A program made the translations under genes and the position numbers. Shown in pieces: positions 3,332 to 55,215 of a stretch of 64,000 nt of DNA (within the stretch, counting starts at the first letter, position 1; each line of letters opens with the position of its first letter). This DNA is from Flavobacteriales bacterium (GTDB lineage Bacteria > Bacteroidota > Bacteroidia > Flavobacteriales_F > PHOS-HE28), in NCBI GenBank assembly GCA_023957375.1, contig JAMLHB010000001.1, positions 1,154,245 through 1,218,244 on the forward strand, given 5' to 3'. The notes beneath the pieces were generated by a model. The model was given only the letters and a program-made list of their open reading frames with translations, was not told where the DNA came from and did no database searches.

Positions 3332-4408
3332 TCAGGAAACGTGCACCACCCAACCGTACTTGTCCGGGGTGCGCCCCTTGCGGATGTCGTCCAGCATCCG
3401 GCCCAACCGGTGCACCTCGCTGTCCGCGCCCAGGTCGGGCAGTTCCAGGTCTTCGCCTTTGTAGGCGATCACCTTGATGGGGGCGATGGTGGCGGCGGTG
3501 CCCGCACCGAATGCCGCGGAAACCTTTCCGTTGCGCAACCCGGCAACCACTTCATCCACCGTCACTTTCCGCTCGGCCACGGGCATGCCCTTGTCCTTGG
3601 CGATGGTGAGGATGCTGTCCCGGGTGATGCCCGGCAAAATGGTACCGTCCAAGCTGGGCGTGGTGAGCACCCCGTCGATGATGAAGAAGACGTTCATGGT
3701 GCCACTTTCCTCAATGTACTTGTGCTCCATGGCATCGGTCCACAGTTGCTGGTGGTAGCCTTCATCCTGGCCCATCTTGGAGGGATAGAGCCCTCCTGCA
3801 TAGTTGCCCCCGCATTTCACTTCCCCGGTGCCACCAGGGAAGGCACGGCTGTATTCCAGCTCGAGCTTCACCCGCAACGGCTCTTGGTAATAGGCGCGCA
3901 CCGGGCTGATGAAGATCATGAACCGGTAGCCCTCGCTGGGCTTTACGCCGATGTACTCATCGCTGGCGAACATGAACGGCCTGATGTACAGCGAACCGTC
4001 TTCGCCGCTGGGAAGCCAGCCGCCATCCATGCGCACCAGCTCCTTCAGGCCGTGCAGAAAAGCGTCCTCCGGCAACGCCGGCATGCACATGCGCTTGGCG
4101 CTCCGGTTCATCCGCGCGATGTTGGCCTGCGGCCGGAAGAGGCTCACGTCGCCTTGCTGGCTGCGGTAAGCCTTCATGCCTTCGAATATGGTTTGCGCAT
4201 AATGCAGCACCAGCGTGGCCGGGCTGAGCTCCAAGTCCTGGAACGGCATGATGCGCGGGCGCTGCCAGGTGCCGTCCGCAAAATCCCATACGAGCATGTG
4301 GTCCGTGAACACACGTCCGAACTTCGGGTTGGCCAAGTCTGTTTCCGGCAGACGTGATTGCTTCACCCGTTGAATATCGATCTCTGTTGCAGTACTGATC
4401 ATGGCCAT
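3332..4408 (-). CDS. ilvE: branched-chain amino acid aminotransferase
   Basis: Class-IV BCAT sequence (…FGRVFTDHMLV…, …GGNYAGGLYPS…). Start MAMISTATE. The N-terminal 168 aa of the 524-aa track ORF are GC-shadow extension. Confidence 0.85.
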   Translation of the reverse strand: MAMISTATEIDIQRVKQSRLPETDLANPKFGRVFTDHMLVWDFADGTWQRPRIMPFQDLELSPATLVLHYAQTIFEGMKAYRSQQGDVSLFRPQANIARMNRSAKRMCMPALPEDAFLHGLKELVRMDGGWLPSGEDGSLYIRPFMFASDEYIGVKPSEGYRFMIFISPVRAYYQEPLRVKLELEYSRAFPGGTGEVKCGGNYAGGLYPSKMGQDEGYHQQLWTDAMEHKYIEESGTMNVFFIIDGVLTTPSLDGTILPGITRDSILTIAKDKGMPVAERKVTVDEVVAGLRNGKVSAAFGAGTAATIAPIKVIAYKGEDLELPDLGADSEVHRLGRMLDDIRKGRTPDKYGWVVHVS

Positions 4409-4478
4409 GCGGTTTGTGCCAAAGGTAAACCCTTCGGCGGGCATAGCCCGGGTGAAAGACCCGTATCCTTGTGGGCCG

Positions 4479-37468: not shown

Positions 37469-38035
37469 TCAATGGTGGTGGTCCTCGTCGTGGTCGTCAT
37501 CATCATCATCATGGTGGTGGTCCCCGTCGTGGTGATCTCCATCGTGGTCCTCGTCCACGTCCCCGCCGTGATGGTGGTGATGGTGACCTTCCACTACCTC
37601 CGGAGCCAGTATCGCAGGGTCCACACCTGCACCGCCGCGATACACGATCCAAGCGCCGAGGTAGGAGCCCACGATCAGCAGCATCGCCGCCGACACTGAG
37701 AGGAAGAGGGACTGCGGGGTGGCCAAGCTTTTTCTGCGCTTCCAACGCAGCAGGCACATCAGCCCGAACACGCCGATGGCGATCGACTGGATCCAGATGT
37801 GCCAGGTCATCCGCTCATGCGCCGCTTCCGTGTGGGCGGGCACCGTGTAGTAGGCCATGATGCCGGTGATGATGGTCAAGAGGCCCATGATCACGCCCGC
37901 CACCATCAGCCCGAACGCCACGCGCGCCAGGTCCTCCCGTTGCTTTCGCCAACCGTAGAGGTCGAGTATCACGCCGCTCAACAGCAAGGCGATCGGAAAG
38001 TGTACGAATGCCGGATGAAGTTCCCAGGTGTTCAT
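37469..38035 (-). CDS. DUF2231-like membrane protein with His/Asp-rich C-terminal tail
   Basis: 4-TM core (start MNTWELHPAFVHFPIALL) and a 45-aa tail HHHHHHGGDVDEDHDGDHHDGDHHHDDDDDDHDEDHHH. Positioned as the first gene of the cus transcription unit. Confidence 0.6.
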   Translation of the reverse strand: MNTWELHPAFVHFPIALLLSGVILDLYGWRKQREDLARVAFGLMVAGVIMGLLTIITGIMAYYTVPAHTEAAHERMTWHIWIQSIAIGVFGLMCLLRWKRRKSLATPQSLFLSVSAAMLLIVGSYLGAWIVYRGGAGVDPAILAPEVVEGHHHHHHGGDVDEDHDGDHHDGDHHHDDDDDDHDEDHHH

Positions 38036-38060
38036 GGTCGTTCGGGTTATTGGTTGGTGT

Positions 38061-38288
38061 TCAGTCGACGGGTTGGAGGAACATGCCGCACTTCGAGCAT
38101 TTGTCCCCTTCCTTGCCGGTGACCTCCGGGTGCATCGGGCAGGCGTATGCCAATTCCTCGGATGCTTGCGTGGCGGTGCTGTCGCCCGTTGCATGGGCAG
38201 GGACTTGTTCGTTGGTGGAGGTGGGGCTGCCACAAGCGGTCCACGTGGTGGCGGCCAGGGCGAGAATGATCAGGCTGTACTTGGTCAT
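38061..38288 (-). CDS. lipoprotein with heavy-metal-binding domain (HMBD)
   Basis: MTKYSLIILALAATTWTACGS lipobox, then YACPMHPEV…CSKCGM. Confidence 0.6.
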   Translation of the reverse strand: MTKYSLIILALAATTWTACGSPTSTNEQVPAHATGDSTATQASEELAYACPMHPEVTGKEGDKCSKCGMFLQPVD

Positions 38289-40402: not shown

Positions 40403-43168
40403 TCAGTCGTCGAACCGCTTTCCCCGCAGGCGCAAGGAATTCGAGATCACGCTCACGCTACTGAAGCTCATGGCCGCAGCGGCGATGATGGGCGAGAGCA
40501 GCCAGCCGAACACCGGGTACAGCAGTCCGGCGGCGATGGGGATGCCCAAGGCGTTGTAGCCGAAGGCGAAGAAGAGGTTCTGCTTGATGTTGCGCATCAC
40601 GGCCTGCGAGAGGCGGCGTGCGCGCAGGATGCCGGTGAGGTCGCCCTTCACCAGGGTGATGCCCGCGCTTTCCATGGCCACATCGGTGCCGTGCCCCATG
40701 GCGATGCCCACGTCGGCGGCGGCCAGTGCGGGCGCATCGTTCACGCCGTCGCCGGCCATGGCCACGATGCGGCCTTCCTGCTGGAGACGTTGCACCACGG
40801 CGCTCTTCCGCTCGGGCAGCACGCCGGCCTCCACTTCCGTGATGCCGAGGCGCTTGGCAACTGCATCGGCGGTTCCCTGTGCATCGCCGGTCAGCATGAC
40901 GATGTGCAGCCCTTGCTTCCGCAGGCCGTCCAACGCTTTTGCGGTGGTGGGCTTGATCGCATCGGCGATGGCCAGCATGCCCGCGACCTTGTCATCGATG
41001 CCGACGAAGATCACCGTGGCGCCTTCACGCCTGCGGTCCGCCGCCAGTTTGGAATGCCGCTCCGTATCGATCGCATGCTCCTTCAGGAAATCCGCGCTGC
41101 CGAGGAGCACGCGCTTGCCTTCCACCGTGCCCATCACGCCTTTGCCTGTGGGCGAATCGAAATCTGTGACGGCCGGCACTTGTACCTCCTTCTCGCGCGC
41201 CACACTGACGATGGCCTTGGCATACGGATGCTCGGAAAGCCGCTCCACCGCTGCGGAGAAGCGCAATACTTCCTCTTCCGTAAACCCTTCTTCCGGAAAG
41301 ACATGCGTGAGGCTCGGCTTGCCTTCGGTGAGCGTGCCGGTCTTGTCCACCACCAGCGTATCCACCTTCTCCATGCGTTCCAGCGCTTCCGCATCGTGGA
41401 TCAGCACGCCCATGCCGGCGCCTTTCCCCACGCCCACCATGATGCTCATCGGCGTGGCCAGGCCCAATGCGCACGGGCATGCGATGATGAGCACGGACAC
41501 CGCGGCAACCAGCGCGTAAGTGAAGCGCGGCTCAGGTCCCACGAACATCCAGACGATGAAGATGAGCACGGCCACGCCGATCACGATCGGCACGAACCAG
41601 CCGGAAACCTTGTCGGCCATGCGCTGGATCGGTGCGCGGGAACGCTGGGCGGAGGCCACGAGATGCACGATGCGCGAGAGCACCGTATCGGCGCCCACTT
41701 TTCCCGCCTTCACCACCAAGGCGCCGGAGCTGTTCATGGTGCCACCGATCACGGCATCGCCCACGGTGCGGGTCACCGGCATGGATTCGCCGGTGATCAT
41801 GCTCTCGTCGATGGAGGAACGTCCTTCCAGCACTTCGCCGTCCACCGGCACTTTTTCCCCGGGCCGCACACGGAGACGATCGCCCACCGTGATGCTGTCC
41901 AGGGCCACTTCCTCGTCCGTGCCATCCGCATTGATGCGCATCGCGGTGGTGGGTGCCAGGTCCAGCAAGGCCTTGATGGCGCCGGACGTGCTTTCGCGTG
42001 CACGCAGCTCCAGCACTTGGCCCAGCAGCACCAGCACGGTGATCACGGCCGCGGCCTCGAAGTAGACGCCCACCACGCCCGGCGCGACATGGAATGCCTC
42101 CGGGAAGAGGCCCGGTGCGAACAGCGCGACCACGCTGTAGAGCCACGCTACGCCCACGCCCATGGCGATCAGCGTGAACATGTTGAGGTTGCGGTTGACC
42201 ACGGAAGCCCAACCGCGTTGCAGCAAGGGCCAACCCGCCCAGAGCACCACGGGCGTGGCCAGGATGAACTGGATCCACGCGGAGAGTTGCGGCGAAACGA
42301 TGTGATGCAACGCCGGGAAGATGTGCGATCCCATCTCCAGCACGAACACCGGGATGGAGAGCGCCACGCCGATCCAGAACCGACGCGTCATGTCGATCAG
42401 CTCCTCGTTGGGACCGGTGTCCGCGCTGTACACTTCCGGCTCCAGCGCCATGCCGCAGATGGGGCAGCTGCCCGGGCCCACCTGCCGGATCTCCGGATGC
42501 ATGGGGCAGGTGTAGATGGCCTCCTTGTTCACTGGCACTGCCGTGGCCGCATGCTGTTCAGGATGCAGGTAGCGCTCGGGATCGGCCTCGAATTTCGTTT
42601 TGCATCCGGCGGAACAGAAGTAATGGGAATGGCCGGCGTGTTCCGTGGAATACTTCGCCGTCTTCGGGTCCACGTCCATGCCGCAGACGAGGTCCTTCAC
42701 CTTGTTTCCTGTGGAAGAAGATGGTCCCGTGAGGTAGTGTTCCGGATCGGCCTCGAACTTCGTTTTGCAACCGGCGGAACAGAAGTAGTAGGTATGGCCC
42801 GCATGCGTAGTGGAATGCTTGGCGGTCTTCGGGTCCACGTCCATGCCGCAGACGGGGTCTCTCACCTTTTGCCCTGCGGAACCGGCGACTGGCAGGTACT
42901 GGGCGGGATCGACCTCGAACTTGGCCTTGCAACCCGCCGAACAGAAGTAATAGGTGTGCCCTGCGTGTTCGCTGGAATGCGTGGCGGTCTTCGGGTCCAC
43001 GTCCATGCCGCAGACCAAGTCCTTCACCTTGCCCTTGCCGATGGCGGGCATGGGGGGCAGCGCCGGTTCCATCCCTGTTCCGCAGCAACTGCCGCCGGAC
43101 TTCGCTTCGTGGGTGTGGCTTTCGCCGTGTTTCTTCTCCATGTCATCCTGGATCGCAGCACAAAGCAC
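40403..43168 (-). CDS. copA: copper-translocating P1B-type ATPase with three N-terminal YHS/TRASH modules and one HMBD
   Basis: Three [11 protein letters not shown]…HAGH(T/S)YYFCSAGCK modules plus YTCPMHPEI…CPICGM. Then CPC ([12 protein letters not shown]), [13 protein letters not shown], and the Cu-type TM motifs GYNALGIP and MSFSSVS. Confidence 0.9.
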
Positions 43169-43739: not shown

Positions 43740-44228
43740 CTACTTCCCGTATTTCTCTTTCAACTCGAGCTTCTTGATGCGCGAAGCGATCGCGCCTGGA
43801 TCGCGTCCGAAGATCACCGCGAGTTCCTTGTTCTTCTTGCCTTCGCAATACAGCTGCTCCAAGCGTGTATCATCCTCAGCCGTCCATCGCGCGTAGGCAT
43901 GCGGATGCTTCTCGCGGATCACTTCGACACTGTACGCCTTGTCGTCCCCCATGGTGAACGATTTCTTCTTGAACGCGTGCGCCATCAAGCGCCGTACAGC
44001 ATCCGCCATCGCCTCCAGCAGGTCCTCCGCGTGGTCCTTATCCACCATGATGTGGCTGTGCTCGAAGCGCTTGCCGGACTGCGTGCTCTCCGAAAGTTTC
44101 AAGTACGGCTCACCGCTCTTTGTTTCCTGCACATCCACGAAGTAGGTCTTGAGACCGGCGCGGAGGCGGGTGCTGTAGATCTCTTTGTCAGGCATCTTGT
44201 ACTGTATTGGTTCAATTCGCGAATTCAT
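43740..44228 (-). CDS. DUF3276 (PUR-alpha-like) family protein with extra C-terminal HTH-like region
   Basis: …KEIYSTRLRAGLKTYFVDVQETKSGEPYLKLSES… is the Bacteroidota-specific DUF3276 pattern. The C-terminal 50 aa (TAEDDTRLEQLY…IASRIKKLEL) resemble a sigma-region-4-like HTH. Overlaps the hsdR stop by 17 nt. Confidence 0.6.
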   Translation of the reverse strand: MNSRIEPIQYKMPDKEIYSTRLRAGLKTYFVDVQETKSGEPYLKLSESTQSGKRFEHSHIMVDKDHAEDLLEAMADAVRRLMAHAFKKKSFTMGDDKAYSVEVIREKHPHAYARWTAEDDTRLEQLYCEGKKNKELAVIFGRDPGAIASRIKKLELKEKYGK

Positions 44229-47200
44229 TCGCCAGCATCTCCGCCTGCCTTAACACCAGCTCCGTGGCCAGCTTCTGCATATCGGGAGGATAGCCGAAGT
44301 GCCGCAGTGTCCGCTTCACGATCACCTTCAGCTTCGCCTTCACGCTCTCCTTGATCGTCCAGTCGATACTGGCGTTCTGGCGCACGCGCTCGGTGAGGAC
44401 CACGGCCAGTTCGCGGAGCTTCTCCTGTTGCATCAGCTCCTTGGCGCTGTCATTGTTCGCCACGGCGGTGTAGAAGGCGTACTCGTATTCGCTGAGACCC
44501 ATATCGGCGGCCTGCTTGTCGCCGGCGGTGATCTCCTTGCTCACCTTGATCAGCTCCTCGATCACTTCGGCGGCGGTAAGGATCTTGTTGTGGTAGCGCT
44601 TGATGCTGTCCTCCAGCATGTCCATCAGTGATCGGCTCTGCACAATGTTGGTGCGGGCGCGGGCCTTGATCTCGTCGTTCAGCAACTTCTTGAGCACTTC
44701 AATGGCCACGTTCTTGTGCGCCATGCCCTTCAGCTCAAACAGGAATTCCTCGCTGAGCACGGAGATGTCCGGCTTCTTGATGCCCGCCGCATCGTACACG
44801 TCGATCACCTTGTCACTCACCAACGCCTGGTCGATCACCTGCCGGATGGTGGTCTCCAACTCCTCATCGGTACGACCGCCTCCGGTACCGTCGAACTTCA
44901 CGAGACGGGCCTTCACGGCTTGGAAGAAGCCGACCTCGTCCTTCACGTCCATCGCCTGGTCGTGCGGGATGGCGATGGCGAAGGCCTTGCTGAGCGCCGT
45001 GACCTCGTTTATGTACCGCCGCTTGCCGTCCTCCAGGCCGAGGATGTGTTCTTCAGCGGCAAGGATCAGCGACAACTTCTTCGCCGTATCCGCTTGGAAG
45101 TAGTCCTCGTAGGGGAAGCCGCTGTACAGGTTGGCGACCACTTCCAATTTCTCCAGCATCAGCGTAACAGCCTGCTCCTGTGCGATGGTGGGGTCACCCT
45201 TGCCACCGGCATCGGAATAGAAGCTGAGCGCCTTCTTCAGGTCGGCGGCGATGCCGAGGTAATCCACCACAAGGCCGCCGGGCTTGTCATGGAACACGCG
45301 GTTCACGCGGGCGATGGCCTGCATCAGGTTGTGCCCCTTCATCGGCTTGTCGATGTAGAGCGTATGCATACTGGGGGCATCGAAACCGGTGAGCCACATA
45401 TCGCGCACGATCACTAATTGCAGCGGATCGTTGGGGTCCTTCATGCGGTCGGCCAGGGCGCGGCGCTGCTCCTTGGTGCTGTGGTGCCGGGCCATGGCCG
45501 GGCCATCCGATGAAGCGGCCGTCATCACCACTTTGATCTTGCCCTTGCCCAGGTCGTCGTCGTGCCACTCCGGGCGCAGGGCCACGATCTCCCGGTACAG
45601 TTCCGCGGCGATCCTTCGGCTCATGGCCACGATCATGCCCTTGCCCTCAAAGACCTCCTGCCGCTGCTCGAAGTGCGCCACGATGTCGCGCGCCACGTTC
45701 TTGATCCGGTTCTCGCTGCCGATCAGCGCCTCCAATTGGGTCCACTTGGCCTTGGCCTTCTGTGTGTCGGTGAGTTCCTCCTTGCCCAACTCATCGTCCA
45801 GGTCTTTGATCAGCTGCTTGCCTTCCTCGCTCAGGTTCACCTTGGCCAAGCGGCTCTCGTAGTAGATGCGCACGGTGGCGCCGTCCTCCACGGCCTGCGC
45901 GATGTCGTACACATCCACGTAGTTCCCGAAGACCGCAGGGGTGTTCACATCGGTGCTCTCGATGGGCGTGCCGGTGAAACCCAGGTAGGTGGCCTTGGGC
46001 AGCGCATCGCGCAGGTACTTGGCGAAGCCGTAGACGATCTTGCTGCCGACCACTTCGCCCGCTTCGTCCTTCACATCCACGTTGCGGGCCTTGAAACCGT
46101 ATTGTGTGCGGTGCGCTTCGTCGGCGATCACCACGATGTTCTCGCGGGCGCTCAACTGATCATACACGTTTCCCTCCTCGGGCTGGAACTTCTGGATGGT
46201 CGTGAACACCACGCCGCCGCTGGCCACCTTCAGCAACTCCTTCAGGTGGTCGCGGCTTTCGGCCTGCACGGGTTCCTGCCGCAGCAGTTGCACGCTTGCC
46301 GCGAAGGTGTCGAAGAGCTGGTCGTCCAGGTCGTTGCGGTCGGTGATCACAACGATGGTCGGATTGTTCAGCGCCAGCACGATCTTGCCGGTGTAGAACA
46401 CCATGCTCAGGCTTTTGCCGCTGCCTTGGGTGTGCCATACCACACCGCCTTTGCGGTCACCGGTGGGTTGCTGGTTTACACCGGGTAGGCCATAGCTCTC
46501 CGGTGATTCCGCCACCATCGACACATCGCCCGTGGTGCTCGTTGACGGAGCCTTGTAGCCTGCCGCCCTGAGCGTGCTCGCCACCGCCCGGTTCACCGCG
46601 TAGTACTGGTGGTACGCGGCGATCTTCTTTACCGTGGTGATGGTGTTGATGCCCGTCTTCGGGTCTTCCTTCTTGCTGCGCTCGAACACGATGAAGTGGC
46701 GCACCAGATCGAGCAGCGTCTCCTTGTTGAGCATGCCCACGATCAGCGTTTCCAACTGACCGATCAACGGCGAGGCTTCCACCTTGCCATCGCTGGTCTT
46801 CCAGCTCATGTACCGGCTATAACCGCTGCTCACCGTGCCGGCCTTGGCCTCCAGGCCGTCGCTGATCACCGTCACACAGTTGTAGGTGAACAGGCCGGGG
46901 ATGGTCTCCTTGTAGGTCTCCACCTGCTTGTAGGCGCTGCGGATGCTCGCCTTCTCATCGGCGGCGTTCTTCAGCTCCATCAGCACCAGCGGCAGGCCGT
47001 TCACGAACAGCAGTACATCCGGCCGCTTGTTCTTGCCGTTCTCCACCACGGTGTATTGGTTCACCACTAATAAGTCGTTGTTGGCGGGGTCGGTGAAATC
47101 CACCAGCCACACCAGGTCGCCGCGGGTGTTGCCGTCCTGCTGGTAGTCCACCTTCACGCCTTCGGTGAGCATGCGGTGGAAGACCTCGTTGTTCACCAGC

Positions 47201-47439
47201 AGCTCCGGGCTGGCGATGCGCGCCACCTGCTTCACCGCCTCCTCCTGTGCCGCTGCCGGTATGCGCGGGTTGATGCGCCGCACGGCCGCGCGCAGGCGCT
47301 CCATCAGCAGCACCGGCTCGTGGCTGGCACGCTCGGGCTGCTCGCCGTCGTGCGCGATGCAGGGCCCGTACTGGTAGGCGTAGCCCAGCTCGCGCAAGCG
47401 CCCAATGGCGAACTGTTCGATCTGGTCTTCGGTCATCAC
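44212..47439 (-). CDS. hsdR: type I restriction enzyme R subunit (HsdR)
   Basis: 1075 aa with an N-terminal nuclease/res domain, a DEAD-like helicase (…VITDRNDLDDQ…, …VVIADEAHRTQYG…) and a C-terminal HsdR_C region. GTG/ATG start 1 nt after the upstream ORF's stop. Confidence 0.9.
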   Translation of the reverse strand: MMTEDQIEQFAIGRLRELGYAYQYGPCIAHDGEQPERASHEPVLLMERLRAAVRRINPRIPAAAQEEAVKQVARIASPELLVNNEVFHRMLTEGVKVDYQQDGNTRGDLVWLVDFTDPANNDLLVVNQYTVVENGKNKRPDVLLFVNGLPLVLMELKNAADEKASIRSAYKQVETYKETIPGLFTYNCVTVISDGLEAKAGTVSSGYSRYMSWKTSDGKVEASPLIGQLETLIVGMLNKETLLDLVRHFIVFERSKKEDPKTGINTITTVKKIAAYHQYYAVNRAVASTLRAAGYKAPSTSTTGDVSMVAESPESYGLPGVNQQPTGDRKGGVVWHTQGSGKSLSMVFYTGKIVLALNNPTIVVITDRNDLDDQLFDTFAASVQLLRQEPVQAESRDHLKELLKVASGGVVFTTIQKFQPEEGNVYDQLSARENIVVIADEAHRTQYGFKARNVDVKDEAGEVVGSKIVYGFAKYLRDALPKATYLGFTGTPIESTDVNTPAVFGNYVDVYDIAQAVEDGATVRIYYESRLAKVNLSEEGKQLIKDLDDELGKEELTDTQKAKAKWTQLEALIGSENRIKNVARDIVAHFEQRQEVFEGKGMIVAMSRRIAAELYREIVALRPEWHDDDLGKGKIKVVMTAASSDGPAMARHHSTKEQRRALADRMKDPNDPLQLVIVRDMWLTGFDAPSMHTLYIDKPMKGHNLMQAIARVNRVFHDKPGGLVVDYLGIAADLKKALSFYSDAGGKGDPTIAQEQAVTLMLEKLEVVANLYSGFPYEDYFQADTAKKLSLILAAEEHILGLEDGKRRYINEVTALSKAFAIAIPHDQAMDVKDEVGFFQAVKARLVKFDGTGGGRTDEELETTIRQVIDQALVSDKVIDVYDAAGIKKPDISVLSEEFLFELKGMAHKNVAIEVLKKLLNDEIKARARTNIVQSRSLMDMLEDSIKRYHNKILTAAEVIEELIKVSKEITAGDKQAADMGLSEYEYAFYTAVANNDSAKELMQQEKLRELAVVLTERVRQNASIDWTIKESVKAKLKVIVKRTLRHFGYPPDMQKLATELVLRQAEMLANEFAN

Positions 47440-48719
47440 TAGCTGGACTTAGGGAGGTACCCTGTTAAACCCCATGAGTTCCACACCTGTGAAAACGGAC
47501 ACACTGACCCTTCATCGATTCTTGTCCAAGGTTCAGAACTGCACCGATAATCAGTGGATTGCCCCCTGTACTGACACGGGGTAAGTAGTTCGCAGCCGTG
47601 CTGCATGTTCCGCAATACCCGTTGTATCTGGTTGATGCCTAGAACATACATCTGCTCTGGTATGTCACCACGGCCCTTGGGGTCCATAACGGTGACCTCT
47701 CCAACGTTGTTTACCACCAGTGGTGAACCCACGGAACGCATGAAATGCGCGAGAACTCGGTTTTGCGCTATTGTGCCTCCGCTCGCAATCAAGGCAGGGA
47801 ACCCAAGCGCCTTTGAGCGAAACGCATGTGCATCCTTCACTAAGTCACAAAGCCAATTCACAACAGGCTTGAACTCTTCAGCGGGAAAATACTCAGCCAG
47901 TCGGGCCACAGCATTCGCGGCTTGGGCACTAAGGCGACCTTGTATATCGAAACCATCCCAACAAGCAGCGTACACATCCCAGCAGCTACGAAGCTCAATC
48001 CGTTCATCACGGATCCTCTCAAGAGTTCGAAGAAATGCGAGACCTGGGTTTAAATGCATGAGGGAGGCGTCGCAAAGAGCAATCAACCCATCCTCAACGT
48101 TTAATAGACTCGGAAGAACAAGCTCCGATAATCGTCGAGCGCCCAAGTATGGTAGCTCACGGCTAGGCGTTGGTGTGCCATAACAAGCATGCTCTATCTC
48201 AAAGGCCATACTTTCAAGTACTGAGAAACCGCCAAAGCGATACTTCACTTCTACACCATCCCTTCCTGCATAGGTCGTTTCCACGACTTCCACCCGGACG
48301 TCGCCACCGTGCGTTAGCACAGTCTCATGGACGATTGCCACACGTTTGCATTCTCCGCCCATTGCTTTGCCATCACCTGCAAAGACATTTGCGAACGAGT
48401 AGTTTGCATGGACGTTATCTGCTGCCTTTGGAGTTGGTTGCACCGGAGCCTTGAAGTCACCTTGAGTTAGCGAGCGTATTTGGGCCACAGCGCCCTTCAT
48501 ATACTCCGTCATTACGTGAATCAAGTTCAGGCCATAGACGGTTGATACATCCTGCACGAAATGGATGTACTCGTGGAGGTATGCCGCTTCCAAGTCTGCG
48601 TCACCGAGTGCATTTAAGTCCTTCAAGGACTTTGAAGTGTCGAGAAACACTCGCATGAATGTCGGGCGGTAATATCCGCCCGTAAACTCTAGGACATCGG
48701 TGAGTGCGCTTCTGTTCAT
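47439..48719 (-). CDS. hypothetical protein with HExxH motif (putative metallopeptidase-like), low-GC
   Basis: 426-aa ORF, AT-richer than its surroundings. AYLHEYIHFVQD has HExxH with a Glu ~25 aa downstream, and the C-terminus is Cys-rich (CELLTPCQYRG…YRCSS…CPF). It sits between hsdS and hsdR in the same operon. Confidence 0.5.
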   Translation of the reverse strand: MNRSALTDVLEFTGGYYRPTFMRVFLDTSKSLKDLNALGDADLEAAYLHEYIHFVQDVSTVYGLNLIHVMTEYMKGAVAQIRSLTQGDFKAPVQPTPKAADNVHANYSFANVFAGDGKAMGGECKRVAIVHETVLTHGGDVRVEVVETTYAGRDGVEVKYRFGGFSVLESMAFEIEHACYGTPTPSRELPYLGARRLSELVLPSLLNVEDGLIALCDASLMHLNPGLAFLRTLERIRDERIELRSCWDVYAACWDGFDIQGRLSAQAANAVARLAEYFPAEEFKPVVNWLCDLVKDAHAFRSKALGFPALIASGGTIAQNRVLAHFMRSVGSPLVVNNVGEVTVMDPKGRGDIPEQMYVLGINQIQRVLRNMQHGCELLTPCQYRGQSTDYRCSSEPWTRIDEGSVCPFSQVWNSWGLTGYLPKSS

Positions 48720-48799
48720 GATGCGATTAGGTTTGCACGTGCTTGACTGGACACCTCACAGGTTATTGACTTCATGCGCACTACCGAGACAGATGAATG

Positions 48800-51049
48800 C
48801 TAGAAGGGCAGGTCATCGTCATCGGCACTTGAAGATGGTGCACCTGGCAGCAAGGGTGCAGGCGGAACCACCTTTGGTGGTGGCGCATGCAATGCCCTGA
48901 ATGCGTCGCGAAACTTGTTCTGGTCGTTCAGTCGAATGAGAACAGGATTCTCACATGACGATGCCTTGCCGAAGAATACAGCGTGCCTCTCTGGAAGAGT
49001 GGAAAGAGTCCCGGCGTAGTCGTCGCCGATATAGTTTGAAAGGAACTCCATGCCTGTCGAATCGAAAGACCGCATAGCAAAGACGGTATTGCATTGGTTC
49101 AGAATCGTCTTCGTCACGTTTGCTGTTCGCTGCGTGATAAGCAAGCAACCCATGCCATACTTCCTGCCTTGGAGAATCGCCCTTGCAGTTCCATTGGTCG
49201 CGCCTCGATCACCTTCGGCAGCAGCAGCATTCCATTCGGGCACTAGCGAGTGCGCCTCCTCAAAGACTAAGCACAGTCGAGCCTGATCCACCATCTTATC
49301 CTGAACAATGGAAAGGGCAGCCTCAGTGACCATCCGGGTGACTTCAACCGGTGTCACATCCCAAATCCCAGCGGAGCGTTGCCAAGCACCTCCTTCCTGA
49401 TATGAGCGCGGTTCTTGCAGTTGTTTGGTTGCAGTGAACTCCGAAGGATTATAGATCTTGAGCTTCGCCGGATTTGTGGGCTTCATGAACTCAGCCAAGT
49501 CCGCATGTATGGCATTTTCCAAGTTCTGTGCGCTTCCTCCTTCTTGCGGGTTATTCTTGATCTGGTCCGCATCCTTGGTTGCCGCTTCTTGAAGTTTCGC
49601 CATTCGTGCAGTCTCTCCTTCCGCGTCATAGTAGTCTGAAAGCTCCTTCGCGTACTGATTGGTAAGATCCAGGCATACCACCTTAATCCCGGCAGCCATC
49701 ATTCGCTCAACAAGCTCGATAGATAGCATTGACTTTCCGACCCCGAGTATCCCTAGGATAGCAGTATTGTGCGTGACAAGTGCGTTGATGTCCTTAATGC
49801 TCACACAGTAGTCCGTCTTCGGGAAATGACCGATGGCATCTGGATCAGGCGTGGGTTCAGTAGCCTTCAGCAGCTTCACTGGCTCGTTCATATTGGGCAG
49901 CCACTTGACCAATTCGAAGCGCTTCTTCGTAGCGTCCCAGCGGCCGATCTTCTGGGCTTGTGCTCTCGCGAATCCATAGGTGTTCTTGTCCTTCACCGGC
50001 TCGTCCTGCAGCAGTCCCTTGATGACTTGATAGATGACGGACTTCCCCGCGATAGTCGTTTGCACAAGACGCCCTTCTTCGATCTCTGAGTCGGGGATAG
50101 TTTCGATGAACAACTTCTCCAAGGTTGAGTCCTTGGCGGTAATGCCAACAATGGCCTCTGCCTCGGCAACAAGCGCCCCCCGGTGCGACTGGTCGCCATC
50201 AAGGACAATTGCAGCGCTCCCTGGCAGGGACTTCAGTACAGCGATCGTGTCTTTGTCAGGCTCTGTGTCCAGTTTGATGACCCGTGCCAATTGATTGTGG
50301 TCACGACCTACATGGTTCAGCACCAAGCCAAGACGGTGGCCATCCACGGGGTCATTGATGGCAATAACCTGCCGTGGCAGTAGTGCTTGCCCATCAGCTT
50401 GGCGCACGAGGTAGACATTGGGATCCTGGGATGCAGCAAGTTCACCTGTAGCGAAGTTCAATGGCACGCCGGAAAAGAGGGCTCGAATTCTGGCAAAGAG
50501 CATGAGTCCTGTTTCGATAGGGGCAAATGCCGCAACGAGAATCCATGTAAGCAGGATCAAGAGCACTTCAGTAGCAGAGTGCCTGTGGAACGAGATAACG
50601 GCAAACACGACAAGCACGGAGAAGACAGCTCGCGGCGTGCCCAGCGCCTGAGCAATCTCCTTTGTTGCGGTACTCAAACGCTGTGTCCATTGTGCCTTAA
50701 GGTCGAATGTGAGAATAGCTATACCACCTGCAATCACAATGATTGCGCAGTATGCTAGAGCAATGTCAAATGCAGTTCGCTCAACCTGGCTCCAAGCATC
50801 CCAGTCTCGTACTAGGAACAACCCAAAGACTGCTGGCAGAGCATATAGCACAGCATCAGCTGGTTTGACAAAGTGCGGTGTATCCAGGCGCGAGCCGAGG
50901 ATCAATCCGAAGAGCGCGCTATAGAACCAAAAGCCCTTCTCATCAATCGGCGGAAACCACACACCGAAGGCCAACCGACTTCCTGCGCAAAGTATGAATA
51001 GCTCAGTAAGGAGAATGATGAATCGCCAACGTTGATTGAGGCTACGCAT
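48800..51049 (-). CDS. membrane-anchored HerA/FtsK-superfamily (DUF87-like) P-loop ATPase, low-GC
   Basis: Six N-terminal TM helices (~200 aa), a beta-rich HAS-barrel-like segment, then Walker A ILGILGVGKSML, Walker B CLVFEEAHSLVPE, and …GCLLITQRTANVT… Overlaps the hsdS stop by 8 nt. Confidence 0.6.
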   Translation of the reverse strand: MRSLNQRWRFIILLTELFILCAGSRLAFGVWFPPIDEKGFWFYSALFGLILGSRLDTPHFVKPADAVLYALPAVFGLFLVRDWDAWSQVERTAFDIALAYCAIIVIAGGIAILTFDLKAQWTQRLSTATKEIAQALGTPRAVFSVLVVFAVISFHRHSATEVLLILLTWILVAAFAPIETGLMLFARIRALFSGVPLNFATGELAASQDPNVYLVRQADGQALLPRQVIAINDPVDGHRLGLVLNHVGRDHNQLARVIKLDTEPDKDTIAVLKSLPGSAAIVLDGDQSHRGALVAEAEAIVGITAKDSTLEKLFIETIPDSEIEEGRLVQTTIAGKSVIYQVIKGLLQDEPVKDKNTYGFARAQAQKIGRWDATKKRFELVKWLPNMNEPVKLLKATEPTPDPDAIGHFPKTDYCVSIKDINALVTHNTAILGILGVGKSMLSIELVERMMAAGIKVVCLDLTNQYAKELSDYYDAEGETARMAKLQEAATKDADQIKNNPQEGGSAQNLENAIHADLAEFMKPTNPAKLKIYNPSEFTATKQLQEPRSYQEGGAWQRSAGIWDVTPVEVTRMVTEAALSIVQDKMVDQARLCLVFEEAHSLVPEWNAAAAEGDRGATNGTARAILQGRKYGMGCLLITQRTANVTKTILNQCNTVFAMRSFDSTGMEFLSNYIGDDYAGTLSTLPERHAVFFGKASSCENPVLIRLNDQNKFRDAFRALHAPPPKVVPPAPLLPGAPSSSADDDDLPF

Positions 51050-52229
51050 TGGCAGAATTGCTTTCGTTGACCCTCACCTCCCCGCTCATCAGCTTCGGCA
51101 GCAGCGTGTCGCGGAGCTTCGTGAGGCTCTGGGTTTGTATTTGATTCGACTTAACCTTATCGAACAACGACTCAACGACCTGATCAAACTCCTCGACCCG
51201 CTCCTTGGGGGGAATGATGAACTCGATAGTCTTAAAGGCCGACTTACTGATCTCTTGGAACGTGGAACCGTTCGCATGGCCCTTCACCGTCTCCATATTG
51301 GCTTTGAGCCAGAGGTGGATAAAGCGGTTCGAGTAGCCTTCATTCCCATTGATCGCGATGTAGCCTTGATTGACGGCCATGGGCACCGCAGCGAATGCCA
51401 TGTACCCGACAGGTGCCCGCGAAGACAGAAGCAACGTGCCTACAGGCTGGAGCCCTGAGCCGATCTGCTTCAACCCATCCTCAGTGATCTTTCTTGCCGT
51501 GTCAAAGAGGTAGAGGTGTTGATCCCCGGACAAGTCCTTCGGTGTAGTCCAGCAGAACTCACCATCCCAATAGGCCGCGTTCGCGGTGCTTGGGGTCGTA
51601 CCTCCCTTCACTTCCATGATGTCACCTAACGTTCCATCCTCCCACCCCTCCTCCGCCTCCTCCACGAACCACTGCCTGAACAGCGCCTCCGCCATCCCCT
51701 CCAAGGTCTTGTTCTGCCGGTGCAGCAGGTCGATCTTGGCATCCAGGCTGCTGAGCACCGAGGCGATGGCGCGTTGCTCGACTACTTCAGGTACAATCAC
51801 GTCCAGTTGGTCAAAGGCCTCCTTTGCAACACGCTGGCGCCCTGAAGTTCCTTGCAGATTGTTTGATGCGTATTCTTTGATCTCGCTCCACTTCGAGAAG
51901 TAGAGGATGAAGTCTTCATGTGATACTCCTGGTTTGGCGCGGAACACGAGGAACTCTGTTGACCCATACCCAAGTTCACCATTGAGTCCGGCCGCCTGAT
52001 TGATATTGCCCTTCTCTGTGCAAGGACTAATCCTCGCGAATAGAGTGTCACCCTCAGCAAAGCGACTTCCTCCTTGCAATGGTCTTTTCCTTTTGGGGTA
52101 GGCAAAACGTCGTGAAGGATCCATGTCCTGCATCTCGATGTAGAAATGCTCCTTTGACCGAGACAGGGTGATCGGTGGATTGATGTCCACGAATTCGCTA
52201 AACTTCATTTCCTTCCACTCACCCATCAA
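51042..52229 (-). CDS. hsdS: type I restriction-modification specificity subunit (HsdS)
   Basis: Two target-recognition domains separated by the conserved central coiled-coil (…[37 protein letters not shown]…) and a C-terminal conserved helix. Confidence 0.85.
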
Positions 52230-54231
52230 CCTTCACGCTTTTCAGGTTCTTCAGGATGGCGCTGTTCAGTTCGGCCTCTTCCTTCAGCTGCGCGGCGAAC
52301 TCGGCTTGCAGCGCCGCGAAGCGCTCGGCGAACACGAAGTCGTCCTCTTCCTCGGCCAGGCCCACGTAGCGGCCGGGGGTAAGCACGTAGTCCAATTCCT
52401 TCACCCTGCTGAGCGGTGCCGCGCAGCAGAAGCCCGGCACGTCTACATAACCACCCCGCCCTTCGGGCACCCCTCCAGGGGAGGGGAATTTGTTGCGCCA
52501 GTTGTGGTAGGTGTCTGCAATGGTGTTGATGTCGGCCTCGCTGAACTCGCGCGTACGGCGGTTCACCAGGTGGCCCAGGTGGCGGGCATCAATGAATAAT
52601 ATCTCCCCCTCCCGGCCTCCCCCACGGGGGGAGGTGGAATGCGACCCAGCTATCTGAGCTGTACTGCGGAGGGAGGAGGAATGCGCGGCTTCGGCGATCT
52701 TGTCGAGAACACCGTTCGGGTCTTCGGCCCATTGGCTGTTGGGGAAGCGTAGCACGGTAAGCCCCATAGTGGTGAGGTACGCATCACGCTTCTTGTCGTG
52801 CTTCATTCGTGCCTCTTCGCTGTGTGGTGCACCGTCAAGCTCAACGACCAGCTTGGCTTCGTGGCAGTAGAAATCCACGATGTAGTTCCCGAACTGATGT
52901 TGCCGACGGAACTTCAAGTCCATGAACTGCTTGTTGCGCAGTGTTTCCCACATCGCCTCTTCGGCCGGTGTTTGCTTTCGACGCAATTCGCGTGCGCGTT
53001 CCACCAAACCAGCGAAGTGGAACCCACCGCGATAGTCGCGCGCGCTCCCTCTCCCCGAGGGAGAGGGCTGGGGTGAGGGCTTTTTCCTCGAAAAGAACCA
53101 GAGGCTGGCGGGGATCTGGGTGTTGAGGAAGAGCTTGGCGGGCAGGTTCACGATACAATCGATGAGGCCGGCTTCCACCATGGCCTTGCGGATGTCGCCT
53201 TCGCCGCTGCTCTTGCTGGTGAGGGCGCCCTTGCTGAGCACCACACCCGCCTGCCCATTGGGGCTGAGGTGGTAGATGAAGTGCTGCATCCACGCGAAGT
53301 TGGCGTTGCCCTCGGGCGGCACACCGTATTGCCAGCGGCCGTCGTTCCGCAGCAGTTCGCCGCTCCAGTCGCTCACGTTGAAGGGCGGGTTGGCAATGAT
53401 GTAGTCGGCCTTCAGGTCGGGGTGGGCATCGTTGAGGAAGGAGCCCTCGCTGTTCCACTTCACCTGCGAGCTGTCGATGCCGCGGATGGCGAGGTTCATC
53501 TTGGCCAGCCGCCAGGTGGTCTGGTTGCTCTCCTGCCCGTAGATGCTGATGTCGTTGACCTTGCCCTGGTGCTCGGTGACGAACTTCTCGCTTTGCACGA
53601 ACATGCCGCCGCTGCCGCAGCAGGGGTCGAACACGCGGCCCTTGTACGGTTCCAGCATGGCCACCAGCAGTTCCACCACGCTGCGCGGGGTGTAGAACTG
53701 GCCGCCCTTCTTGCCCTCGGCCAGTGCGAACTCGCCCAGGAAGTACTCGAACACGTGGCCCAGCACGTCGGCGCTGCGGCTCTTGGCATCGCCCAGGGCG
53801 ATGTTGCCGATCAGGTCGATGAGGCCGCCGAGGCTGGTGGGGTCCAGGTTCTGCCGGGCGTACACCTTGGGCAGCACGCCCTTCAGCGATTCGTTCTCCC
53901 GCTCGATGGCATCCATGGCATCATCGACGGTCTTACCGATGCTGGGCTGCTTGGCGTGGCTTTGCAAAAAGCTCCACCGCGCGCCGGGCGGCACGAAGAA
54001 GACGTTCTCGGCCTTGTACTCGTCCTTGTCCTCGGGGTCGGCGCCTTCGGCTTCCTCGGCCTTCAGCCTGTCGTACAGCTCCACGAAGGCATCGCTGATG
54101 TACTTGAGGAAAACGAGGCCGAGCACGATGTGCTTGTACTCGGCAGCATCGATGTTCTTGCGCAGCTTGTCGGCGGTTTTCCAGAGCTGCTTTTCGATGG
54201 GTTCTTCGGGGGATTCCTTCTTCTTGGCCAT
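52219..54231 (-). CDS. hsdM: type I RM N6-adenine DNA methyltransferase (HsdM) carrying an in-frame DUF559/Vsr-like endonuclease domain insertion
   Basis: HsdM_N (…[17 protein letters not shown]…), motif [11 protein letters not shown] and motif [10 protein letters not shown]. An internal ~165-aa block …[43 protein letters not shown]…LTVLRF… matches DUF559. Start at [10 protein letters not shown]. Confidence 0.85.
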
Positions 54232-54408
54232 GCGGCATAAATGGATGGCAAGGTAGAGATCGGGTAGCGGTGGATGCACGGTGTGGCACGGGCATCGATC
54301 AACAATTCGTCCGGACCTGCAGCCATGCCCGGCTCCAAGTACCGGTCAAGGGCATTTGCGCGCTGCCCATGCCCCACATGCGGGCTGGTTACGTGGAGCC
54401 GTTGCCGC

Positions 54409-54707
54409 CTATGCCCCCCGTAGCAGCACGCACCGCGCCTCCACCAGGCCCTGAAAGCCGGAGACACGGCCGCGAGGTCCACTACATCCACCTTGATGGG
54501 CAGGTCGCTGTCCGAGAGGTCCTGCTCCAGCAGGGCCAGGGTGGCCATGCCCAGTGGGCGGCCCGCATCAATGGCAATATCCAGGTCGCTGAATTTTTGC
54601 GCAGTGCCCTTCACCCGGCTTCCGAACGCCCATACGGAAACTCCGGGCACATGCTTGCCCAAGATGGGAAGTAGCATGTCCAAATGCCGTTGCTCCAGGT
54701 CAAGCAT
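54409..54707 (-). pseudogene. MNT-type nucleotidyltransferase (HI0073-like antitoxin), apparently frameshifted near its 3' end
   Basis: …AFGSRVKGTAQKFSDLDIAI…VDVVDLAAVSPAF… is the pfam01909 pattern. After SPAFRA the annotated frame runs on for >100 codons over hsdM. A +2 frame gives a plausible C-terminus LVEARCVLLRGA* with a stop at ~54409. Confidence 0.55.
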
Positions 54708-55215
54708 GGCGGTCGATCAATTCATCCAGCAATTTCCGGGCATGGGGCACGAACGAAAGGGCAACCTGGTAGGTCTCCCCGGCCTTGTCCGTGTCGTAGT
54801 TGTGGCTGGTGAGGTTGCGTGCCCGCTGGAAGGTGAACCAACCTTCGGGGTCATCGATCAAGCCCCTGCGGGCCGCTTCCCTGAACAATTCCCTTCTGCC
54901 CAACAGGTCCGCATCCCCGGCTTCCATCAATACTAACTGGCGGCGCATCATCTTCCAGTACAGCTCATAAGTGTACTCAAACCGCTGGATGCATCCATCA
55001 CGCTCCAAGTCGTTCGCCGGCACTGTTGGCGAACGCCTCTTCCAAGCGCAAAAACCGCATTCAACAAACTGGACAGGTCCAAGCGTTCCGGATCCATGGT
55101 TGCTAAGATAAATGCCTGCACCTACTTCGCTGTGCCAAGGCTCCTTATGCAGCGCCTTGTCAATCCAGCCCCAGGTCCATCTGCTTGCCCGGCTTATAAC
55201 CGATGATCGGATCAT
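54700..55215 (-). CDS. nucleotidyltransferase substrate-binding protein, HI0074/HEPN-like family
   Basis: …IQRFEYTYELYWKMMRRQL…RELFREAARRGLIDDPEGWFTFQRARNLTSHNYD… Start uncertain: the annotated N-terminal ~40 aa look non-homologous, so the true start may be internal or non-ATG. Confidence 0.55.
   Translation of the reverse strand: MIRSSVISRASRWTWGWIDKALHKEPWHSEVGAGIYLSNHGSGTLGPVQFVECGFCAWKRRSPTVPANDLERDGCIQRFEYTYELYWKMMRRQLVLMEAGDADLLGRRELFREAARRGLIDDPEGWFTFQRARNLTSHNYDTDKAGETYQVALSFVPHARKLLDELIDRHA

Follow-up and report, generated by a model that had tools for sequence, protein, structure and literature searches.

An in-frame DUF559 nuclease cassette with BoxC-type ends in a type I restriction-modification methyltransferase gene: a candidate homing-like mobile element

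The I-Bth0305I/EDxHD group of Vsr-like homing endonucleases was reportedly described by Taylor and colleagues in 2011 (PDB 3R3P). The BoxC repeat, also called the PIT element, is said to have been treated by Bergler in 1992 and by Hoyne and Maher in 2000. Under the further name TMECO, an intrastrand triplex motif, it has the consensus 5'-CCCTCNCCC-N3-6-GGGNGAGGG-N3-GGGNGAGGG and is linked to local genomic instability and rearrangement in E. coli, for which replication slippage was proposed (Holder et al. 2015, PMC4666352). BoxC was described as an orphan repeat that lies between genes in proteobacteria and cyanobacteria, and neither a protein partner nor a mobility mechanism is described for it (PMC4666352). 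The same study gives 1 to 29 copies for individual E. coli strains. In a passage on a DUF559-containing gene, PMC9403480 cites EDxHD as a novel family of homing endonucleases. Here we analyze a 64-kb stretch of a Flavobacteriales genome (contig JAMLHB010000001.1; the window), in which hsdM, the methyltransferase subunit gene of a type I restriction-modification (R-M) system, contains an in-frame DUF559 nuclease domain between two BoxC-type motifs. In the literature searched (subscription-only papers lay outside the search), no link of DUF559 to BoxC is described, and neither are in-frame DUF559 cassettes in R-M genes.

Our preferred reading, with a probability of roughly 0.6, is that the insert is a selfish, homing-like BoxC-DUF559-BoxC cassette. 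It would be horizontally mobile, and translated through as a loop domain of its host protein instead of being spliced.

A DUF559 insert with three-arm ends in hsdM

The hsdM open reading frame (ORF) encodes 670 residues from an ATG at 54231 (MAKKK...), or 686 residues from a GTG at 54279, and ends at 52219. The ATG is the more plausible start. The protein has the features of its class: HsdM_N and N6_Mtase domains, motif I (DPCCGSGG), motif IV (NPPF), and hsdS and hsdR as neighbors. The N6_Mtase match is broken into two stretches in Pfam, with DUF559 in between. An earlier note on this DNA, made from the sequence alone, had proposed an enlarged HsdM of about 670 residues in which an in-frame DUF559 domain follows LWFFSRKK. 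The ORF, the Pfam match (E 4e-36) and alignment bear out both the fusion and its position. The boundaries were set by alignment to an empty allele (L001) and two filled alleles (L002 and L003), and place the insert at residues 385-543 of the 670-residue protein, with junctions K/PSP and GE/ILF. The insert is therefore 159 residues long, not about 165 as estimated before. The host segments on its two sides are also not contiguous in ordinary HsdM, as had been assumed. Insert-free homologues have a loop of 12-20 residues here, for example SRNRANGKFRSRTSE, and in the window lineage part of this native loop was replaced at the insertion point. The composition of the insert is foreign to the host gene. 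Its G+C content is 53-57%, compared with 63-67% in flanking hsdM, and G+C at third codon positions (GC3) is 0.68, compared with 0.88 in the rest of hsdM.

Both ends of the insert are formed by GC-rich three-arm motifs in inverted orientation (Table 1). The earlier note had recognized palindromic linkers at these places. Both sequences that it quoted are present, CCCTCTCCCCGAGGGAGAGGG at 53047-53067 (0 matches expected from shuffles) and CCTCCCCCACGGGGGGAGG at 52616-52634 (0.06 expected), but each is only a fragment of a longer three-arm motif. The left flank is the sole exact match to the TMECO consensus in the window, where 0 are expected. The right flank and a third motif downstream in hsdM, at site B, keep the three-arm order and deviate from the consensus in arm sequence and loop length. 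GC-rich hairpins with homopyrimidine arms and a stem of at least 7 occur in the window only in the two insert palindromes and the site-B motif (shuffles, 0-1). Neither further motif copies nor a second DUF559 were found in the window outside hsdM. The third motif, the BoxC/TMECO identity of the flanks and their wide occurrence had been overlooked before. The motif is free of stop codons in all three frames of its C-rich strand, and peptides from all three frames occur in hsd proteins, including PHPNPLPxGEG and LTPALSHGERE.

The domain between the motifs is a well-conserved member of its family. It scores 123.5 bits against PF04480 (cut-off 20.6) over profile positions 5-107 of 109. It also matches NF007294, the NCBIfam YcjD family, at E 6e-24, below the equivalog cut-off, and PDB 3HRL at E 1e-19. 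The earlier note had proposed checking the catalytic residues, and all family-invariant residues are present. The window copy keeps 18 of 18 invariant columns of a 53-sequence alignment, among them D69, E80, D82 and G83 (insert numbering), and has H86 in a column that is nearly invariant. An AlphaFold2 (AF2) model of the insert, with a mean predicted local distance difference test (pLDDT) of 81.4, was compared with known structures by Foldseek. The best match is 3HRL (template modeling score, TM, 0.86), and the next is the catalytic domain of I-Bth0305I (3R3P; TM 0.73-0.79, E 3e-5). Vsr itself (1VSR/1CW0) is a weaker match (E 0.07-0.09). The full-length AF2 model is mediocre (pLDDT 65, predicted TM 0.51) and was used for domain and linker boundaries and topology only. 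In this model the DUF559 domain is compact (pLDDT 75-90), both linkers have pLDDT below 50, and the insertion lies between the adjacent strands 375-381 and 543-548.

The ratio of nonsynonymous to synonymous substitution rates (dN/dS) of the DUF559 core between filled alleles is 0.04 and 0.06, and that of hsdM is 0.15-0.30. These values indicate strong purifying selection on a domain that is not decaying. Together with the conservation of its residues, they suggest that the DUF559 domain of this clade is an active nuclease. An inactivated parasite, one of the options raised in the earlier note, is disfavored by the same dN/dS values and by the retention of all family-invariant residues.

The insert is polymorphic among close relatives. 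A whole-protein search recovered homologues of 516-543 residues that are 92-95% identical in the host part and lack DUF559, and two homologues that share the insert. The empty allele L001 is 92.6% identical to the window gene at the DNA level and has the native loop SRNRANGKFRNRTDE in the position of the cassette. At informative sites, the window agrees with the filled allele L003 from about 90 nt upstream of the cassette (mixed until about 40 nt) to 6 nt downstream of it. From 12 nt downstream, it agrees with the empty allele, by 21:0 over sites 1641-1800. The cassette and a very short flank have thus been exchanged between backgrounds. The mosaic flanks support transfer by recombination and are compatible with a short conversion tract.

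Recurrence of the cassette and of solo motifs

A search with the insert alone gave 3837 matches. They include fragments fused to segments of HsdM_N, N6_Mtase, HSDR_N, SWI2_SNF2 and ResIII. A scan of GTDB with one genome per species found at least 577 relatives, none more than 64% identical, and the best 80 loci were examined. These loci come from Verrucomicrobiota, Planctomycetota, Acidobacteriota, Nitrospirota, Desulfobacterota, Elusimicrobiota, Cyanobacteria and three archaeal metagenome-assembled genomes (MAGs). Nearly all DUF559 copies in them (79 of 82) lie within hsdM, hsdR or hsdS, and in 74 of the 82 a single protein continues in frame across both junctions.

Insertion sites were mapped on the insert-free HsdM, HsdS and HsdR of the window and fall at about ten discrete positions. 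The window site (site A, HsdM ~384) is occupied in 22 further loci. Elsewhere in HsdM there are 5 copies at ~146, 1 at ~270 and 4 at ~423 (site B). HsdR has 3 copies at ~100, 5 at ~220, 4 at ~255, 21 at ~290-330 and 12 at ~420-430, and HsdS has 2 at ~190. Two hsdR genes from Verrucomicrobiota (L021 and L024) contain two cassettes each at different sites, plus solo motifs at others. These sites and the 92-95% identical homologues without the block agree with the proposal of the earlier note that this is a mobile cassette rather than an ancient architecture. A block carried uniformly by relatives, with no palindromic flanks, is not what was found.

The wider family has the same preference. Among cluster representatives at 50% identity it comprises 25,351 members at E <=1e-3, and 63 of the best 145 new representatives are longer than 300 residues. 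The hosts among these 63 are HsdS (32), HsdM (10), MmeI/Eco57I-type enzymes (8), HsdR (4) and type ISP enzymes (3). A few representatives have unrelated hosts, namely EarP, a histidine kinase, a class I tRNA synthetase and a Toprim protein. The 377-residue metagenomic protein P0241 consists of three tandem DUF559 domains. In four loci (L064, L070, L074 and L033) the cassette is in frame with the hsd gene on one side only, or the host ORF is broken soon after it (L033). The host gene may be split or a pseudogene in these cases, so not every insertion is harmless.

The motifs accompany the nuclease across these contexts. Exact TMECO matches are present in 36 of 95 fetched loci, mostly directly upstream of the DUF559 ORF. 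A perfect hairpin with a stem of at least 7 (CCCTCTCCC-NNN-GGGAGAGGG or a symmetric variant) is found in 74% of left and 79% of right flanks of 86 copies, compared with 5% of shuffles. The arm order is C-C-G in 50 of the 86 left flanks and C-G-G in 5, whereas on the right it is C-G-G in 66 and C-C-G in 1. The ORF is therefore bracketed by an inverted motif pair. Within 130 nt of DUF559 there are 6.9 motifs per kb, compared with 0.19 per kb in the remainder of these loci. A divergent DUF559 subfamily at HsdM site B (35-40% identity) keeps the C-C-G/C-G-G layout with all arms changed to CCCCC or GGGGG. This association across subfamilies and contexts indicates that motif and nuclease form one unit whose sequences co-vary.

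Identities of inserts and hosts are discordant in several comparisons. The hosts of L008 and L043 are 92% identical and their inserts only 66%, while L048 and L074 have inserts 82% identical in hosts that are 49% identical. Copies embedded in hsdR are 83-84% identical to a stand-alone copy (L006). These comparisons indicate that the cassette was acquired repeatedly and independently at the same hot spots, with occasional switching of sites.

Stand-alone DUF559 genes occur in unrelated intergenic contexts, and the same flanks recur around them, which also agrees with a mobile cassette. On plasmid pDEIPR03 of Deinococcus proteolyticus, such a gene lies in a perfect inverted motif pair whose arms equal those of the window right motif. 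In Picosynechococcus PCC 7002 and N. gonorrhoeae, too, the stand-alone genes lie between motifs. The stop codon of E. coli K-12 ycjD, also a DUF559 gene, coincides with a degenerate hairpin, and there is a full BoxC about 170 bp downstream of the gene but none upstream. Its region is that of envM (fabI), which we take to be where BoxC was first described. Of 5426 complete E. coli genomes, 3378 (62%) contain the gene. In the K-12 locus (L087, ~4240-4420), about 40 nt of the ycjD 3' end (GGAGACGGTGCTGGAGAATATTC...) are duplicated between the stop-codon hairpin and the full BoxC. The duplicate may be left over from a rearrangement or from a second copy.

On a plasmid of Synechocystis sp. B12 (L095) and on pAQ6 of Picosynechococcus PCC 7002 (L092), DUF559 genes lie inside or adjoin DUF1156 (putative DNA methylase) genes. 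The DNA downstream of the L095 cassette still encodes a DUF1156-like motif, so the methylase appears to be interrupted or annotated as separate CDSs. In JGI data, many stand-alone DUF559 proteins of 125-180 residues are named 'type I restriction enzyme R subunit', which looks like annotation spill-over. Carriage by phages was rejected, with just 2 distant matches in 2.9 million viral contigs. The cassette is also not a plasmid trait, as 45 of 72,556 plasmid records contain a match and all are stand-alone genes.

Motifs without a nuclease are found as well. The solo motif at site B is common to the window gene and the empty allele L001. In a loop survey of 120 HsdM homologues, the site-A loop is native in 58, has extra sequence without DUF559 in 34 and contains a DUF559 cassette in 26. 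The corresponding numbers at site B are 27, 71 and 17. The family of the site-B motif recurs at either loop in dozens of homologues, with 3-4 tandem copies in P0040 and P0097. These motifs constitute a family of translated palindromic repeats in their own right. As a member of this distinct and very common family, the site-B motif may be a scar of the window cassette or the product of independent colonization. Solo motifs have exactly the host junctions of filled alleles, and the one at HsdR ~100 of L021 does so on both sides. It looks like the left motif joined to a remnant of the right outer arm. Recombination between directly repeated hairpin cores would leave a solo motif of this type. It is equally possible that solo motifs could serve as landing pads for the cassette.

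Weighing mobility against other explanations

A homing-like cassette would work as follows. From its place in a turn of the HsdM methyltransferase domain, where two adjacent β strands meet, it would be read through by the ribosome. The motifs lack stop codons in the frames used and encode disordered linkers rich in Pro, Ser and Gly, so that HsdM would carry the nuclease as an additional, flexibly tethered domain and the host gene would stay intact. The nuclease may nick or cut at or near the motif or the empty site, and recombinational repair may then copy the cassette from a filled allele. Loss would occur by recombination between the two directly repeated hairpin cores and leave a solo motif. 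The preference for R-M genes may stem from their high conservation and frequent horizontal exchange, their dispensability, or large proteins with permissive loops. The earlier note had also suggested auxiliary nicking, and the distribution of the cassette favors homing over it. A wider proposal is more tentative, and we would not bet on it at even odds. It states that BoxC/TMECO-type motifs are cis-acting ends or targets of DUF559 nucleases, and that the two form a very widespread, unrecognized class of mobile elements. These elements would resemble REP/RAYT systems in their logic, would use a Vsr-like nuclease, and could reside in genes as translated in-frame insertions that are not spliced, with a preference for R-M genes.

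Several observations weigh against a homing-like cassette. The predicted single-stranded DNA hairpins have energies of -9.8 to -11.4 kcal/mol, with z only -0.8 to -2.1 relative to composition-matched shuffles. Such energies are unexceptional, so the significance of the motifs rests on comparative evidence and not on thermodynamics. The hsdM gene is mosaic elsewhere too, and recombination at the cassette therefore need not be nuclease-driven. Because part of the native loop was replaced, the window lineage shows no clean difference between insert and nothing. Within the clade of the window, L002 and L003, dS of the insert is similar to that of the host, which fits vertical co-inheritance at that time scale. 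The nearest neighbor of a DUF559 copy is at the same site in 61 of 86 cases (13.6 expected), a clustering that would fit co-inheritance or site-specific homing alike. The presumed recognition motifs survive insertion, unlike in classical homing, and the activity and substrate of DUF559 proteins in this clade are so far hypothetical. The embedded fraction among the 80 loci is biased upward, since the loci are the best matches to a query that is itself embedded in hsdM, and come mostly from MAGs. Finally, strong purifying selection and the near-universal in-frame status could equally mean a benefit to the R-M complex.

This last point leads to the main rival, which we consider unlikely. In it, DUF559 is an exapted accessory domain, a host-beneficial module of R-M complexes that was acquired a few times and kept by selection, and the motifs are now mere linkers. 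Its benefit might be, for instance, additional nicking or cleavage by a nuclease held close to the enzyme on the DNA. A useful domain would explain why dN/dS (0.04-0.06) is below that of the host gene, and why both junctions are in frame, with host ORFs intact, in 74 of 82 copies. The clustering of DUF559 copies chiefly by site also speaks for it, as do the hosts, the great majority of which are R-M enzymes (types I, ISP and IIG) that target nucleic acids. Few acquisitions are at odds with at least ten insertion points in three subunits, some hsdR genes with two copies, and presence or absence that differs between 92-95% identical alleles. A dedicated R-M module does not account for the identical layout around stand-alone genes in unrelated intergenic DNA, or for occasional hosts such as EarP, a histidine kinase and a class I tRNA synthetase. 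The composition of the insert is foreign, and mere linkers would not be expected to keep palindromy at the DNA level across phyla. Exaptation need not exclude a mobile origin, and the two are compatible.

The abundance of solo motifs suggests another explanation, to which we give little credence. The three-arm motifs would be recombinogenic non-B structures that colonize loops by stalling, slippage and template switching, and the DUF559 ORF would be a passenger moved by ordinary homologous or illegitimate recombination, to which its own catalysis would add nothing. Solo motifs of several families, some of them in tandem, far outnumber cassettes at the same loops (71 and 17 at site B). TMECO is linked to local instability, with slippage proposed (Holder et al. 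2015), and hsdM is generally mosaic. A passenger ORF, however, would not hold dN/dS near 0.05 and all invariant residues across phyla. The motif arms co-vary with the DUF559 subfamily, which argues for specific recognition of the motif by the protein, and the strict orientation of the motifs around the ORF is hard to obtain by random capture.

The inverted flanks could also be those of an invertible switch, in which inversion of the cassette breaks the hsdM frame and phase-varies the R-M system. This is very improbable. In-silico inversion does bring in stop codons, and 'DUF559 domain-containing protein' is enriched among predicted programmed-inversion targets with an odds ratio of 14.3 (PMC9881135, Table 1). 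That enrichment is more simply due to R-M specificity proteins being named after a DUF559 insert. None of 86 copies is inverted in its host ORF, all being recovered in the host frame, and no recombinase gene adjoins the window cassette.

A spliced element, with a mature HsdM lacking the block, has a negligible probability: the sporadic occurrence at conserved sites of conserved genes, the encoded nuclease and the resemblance of its fold to intron-encoded I-Bth0305I would suit a group I or II intron or an intein, but the Rfam scan of 52000-54500 gave only a chance snoRNA match (E 0.92), Pfam finds only DUF559/MTES_1575 in the insert and no Hint/intein domain, the junctions are Lys-Pro and Glu-Ile without the Cys/Ser/Thr nucleophiles of inteins, the flanks are just 30-33 nt, and the block is always in frame and stop-free, which splicing does not need.

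Genomic setting and comparison with known systems

The type I operon at the window is complete, with hsdM, hsdS, a DUF87-like ATPase, a 426-residue ORF and hsdR, and its other genes are free of inserts (Table 1). The hsdS gene overlaps the 3' end of hsdM. The DUF87/HerA-like ATPase has 749 residues and is membrane-anchored, and the 426-residue ORF has no Pfam match. In the related locus L003, genes of 724 and 426 residues likewise follow hsdS. Together, the two genes may form a conserved module that is accessory to this type I system.

Directly upstream of hsdM are two mutually overlapping genes, for an MNT nucleotidyltransferase (Polbeta/NTP_transf_2) and a HEPN-type NTase_sub_bind protein. 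They look like a toxin-antitoxin-like pair within the R-M locus. The HsdM homologue P0024 (660 residues) has NTase domains fused in the same protein. Further away, a protein with an extreme His/Asp-rich tail adjoins a P-type ATPase that has three N-terminal Cys-rich repeats (...YYFCSAGCK). These look like an ordinary metal-resistance cluster.

Table 1. Positions of the cassette, its host operon and neighboring genes in the window
Feature	Position	Strand	Description
hsdM, type I R-M methyltransferase subunit	52219..54231	minus	cassette host; ORF, Pfam, TIGR00497 hsdM, PADLOC MTase_I
Whole in-frame cassette	52603..53079	minus	left BoxC-type motif, DUF559 ORF, right BoxC-type motif; 477 nt, 159 aa
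Left three-arm motif, C-C-G order	53047..53079	minus (gene strand)	CCCTCACCC-CAG-CCCTCTCCC-TCG-GGGAGAGGG; exact TMECO/BoxC consensus on + strand
DUF559 (Vsr-like PD-(D/E)XK) core	52687..53034	minus	116 aa; VDFYC (D453), ELDGAPH (E464, D466, H470)
Right three-arm motif, C-G-G order	52605..52634	minus	CCTCCCCC-CGT-GGGGGAGG-CC-GGGAGGGGG; encodes SPRGGGREG; variant arms, inverted relative to left
Site-B solo motif	52451..52486	minus	CCCCTCC-CCT-GGAGGGG-(TGCCCGAAGGGC)-GGGGTGG; in hsdM, between TYHNWRN and YVDVPGFC; unique in window
Rest of operon	44212..52229	minus	insert-free throughout
hsdS	51042-52229	minus	
DUF87/HerA-like ATPase	48800-51049	minus	between hsdS and hsdR
426-aa ORF	47439-48719	minus	between hsdS and hsdR
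hsdR	44212-47439	minus	HSDR_N, SWI2_SNF2, ResIII, T1RH-like_C domains
MNT and HEPN-type genes	54063-55215	minus	putative toxin-antitoxin-like pair
His/Asp-tail protein and adjoining P-type ATPase	37469-38233 and 40403-43168	minus	tail HHHHHHGGDVDEDHDGDHHDGDHHHDDDDDDHDEDHHH; resembles a metal-resistance cluster

If the homing-like reading is true, it would tie together two orphans: the BoxC/PIT/TMECO repeat, which is triplex-forming, enzyme-less and known since the 1990s, and the DUF559 family. The wider proposal on BoxC/TMECO and DUF559, if true, would assign a function to a family of about 25,000 clusters (50% identity), E. coli YcjD among them, and to a repeat that has been an orphan since 1992. 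Under the homing-like reading, the cassette would also represent a third lifestyle for a nuclease-encoding selfish element in an essential frame. Beside intron and intein splicing, stop-free palindromic ends would be read through into a surface loop. R-M genes of types I, ISP and IIG would be a preferred habitat of a selfish element, which bears on annotation and on length variation among R-M proteins. The permissive loops identified in HsdM, HsdR and HsdS would be usable for protein engineering.

The cassette shares with homing endonuclease genes as a class the occurrence of filled and empty alleles at a defined site of a conserved gene. It does not share their carriage by introns or inteins or as free-standing genes. 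I-Bth0305I and the EDxHD family also have a small Vsr-like PD-(D/E)XK domain, the second-best structural match to the insert, and are found sporadically inside conserved host genes. The sequence identity between I-Bth0305I and the insert is only 23-24%. Unlike I-Bth0305I, which resides in a group I intron and has relatives in inteins, the window cassette has no detectable splicing element, is translated in the host protein and has inverted BoxC-type flanks. Inteins with homing endonucleases are likewise in-frame nuclease insertions at recurrent sites of conserved proteins, sporadic, with several per host possible. In contrast to them, the cassette lacks a Hint domain and junction nucleophiles. 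It is found in loop turns, not in active-site motifs, and the mature protein presumably still contains it.

Two systems of palindromic repeats are also similar. Rickettsia palindromic elements (RPEs) are short in-frame palindromic repeats in genes, translated and tolerated in surface-exposed segments. They encode no enzyme, are limited to Rickettsia, measure ~100-150 bp and are not three-arm GC-rich motifs. REP/RAYT systems (REPtrons) resemble the cassette in a single-copy nuclease gene, inverted short GC-rich palindromes, dispersed solo copies and a repeat that co-varies with the enzyme lineage. RAYTs belong to the HUH/Y1 transposases (IS200/IS605 type), and REPs are extragenic. The enzyme here is instead a Vsr-like PD-(D/E)XK nuclease, and the motifs lie in ORFs and tolerate translation.

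The closest relatives of the two components are BoxC/TMECO itself and the free-standing DUF559 proteins. The left flank is the exact BoxC/TMECO consensus and the right flank is an arm variant of it. Unlike described BoxC, which is intergenic and multi-copy, the motifs here are inside coding sequence and translated, are confined to a single locus within the 64-kb window, enclose a nuclease gene as two inverted copies, and extend to many further phyla. YcjD and NGO0050 of N. gonorrhoeae (PDB 3HRL) belong to the same DUF559 family and have BoxC-type motifs nearby. They are free-standing proteins of 104-117 residues with their own start codons, whereas the window domain is read as part of HsdM.

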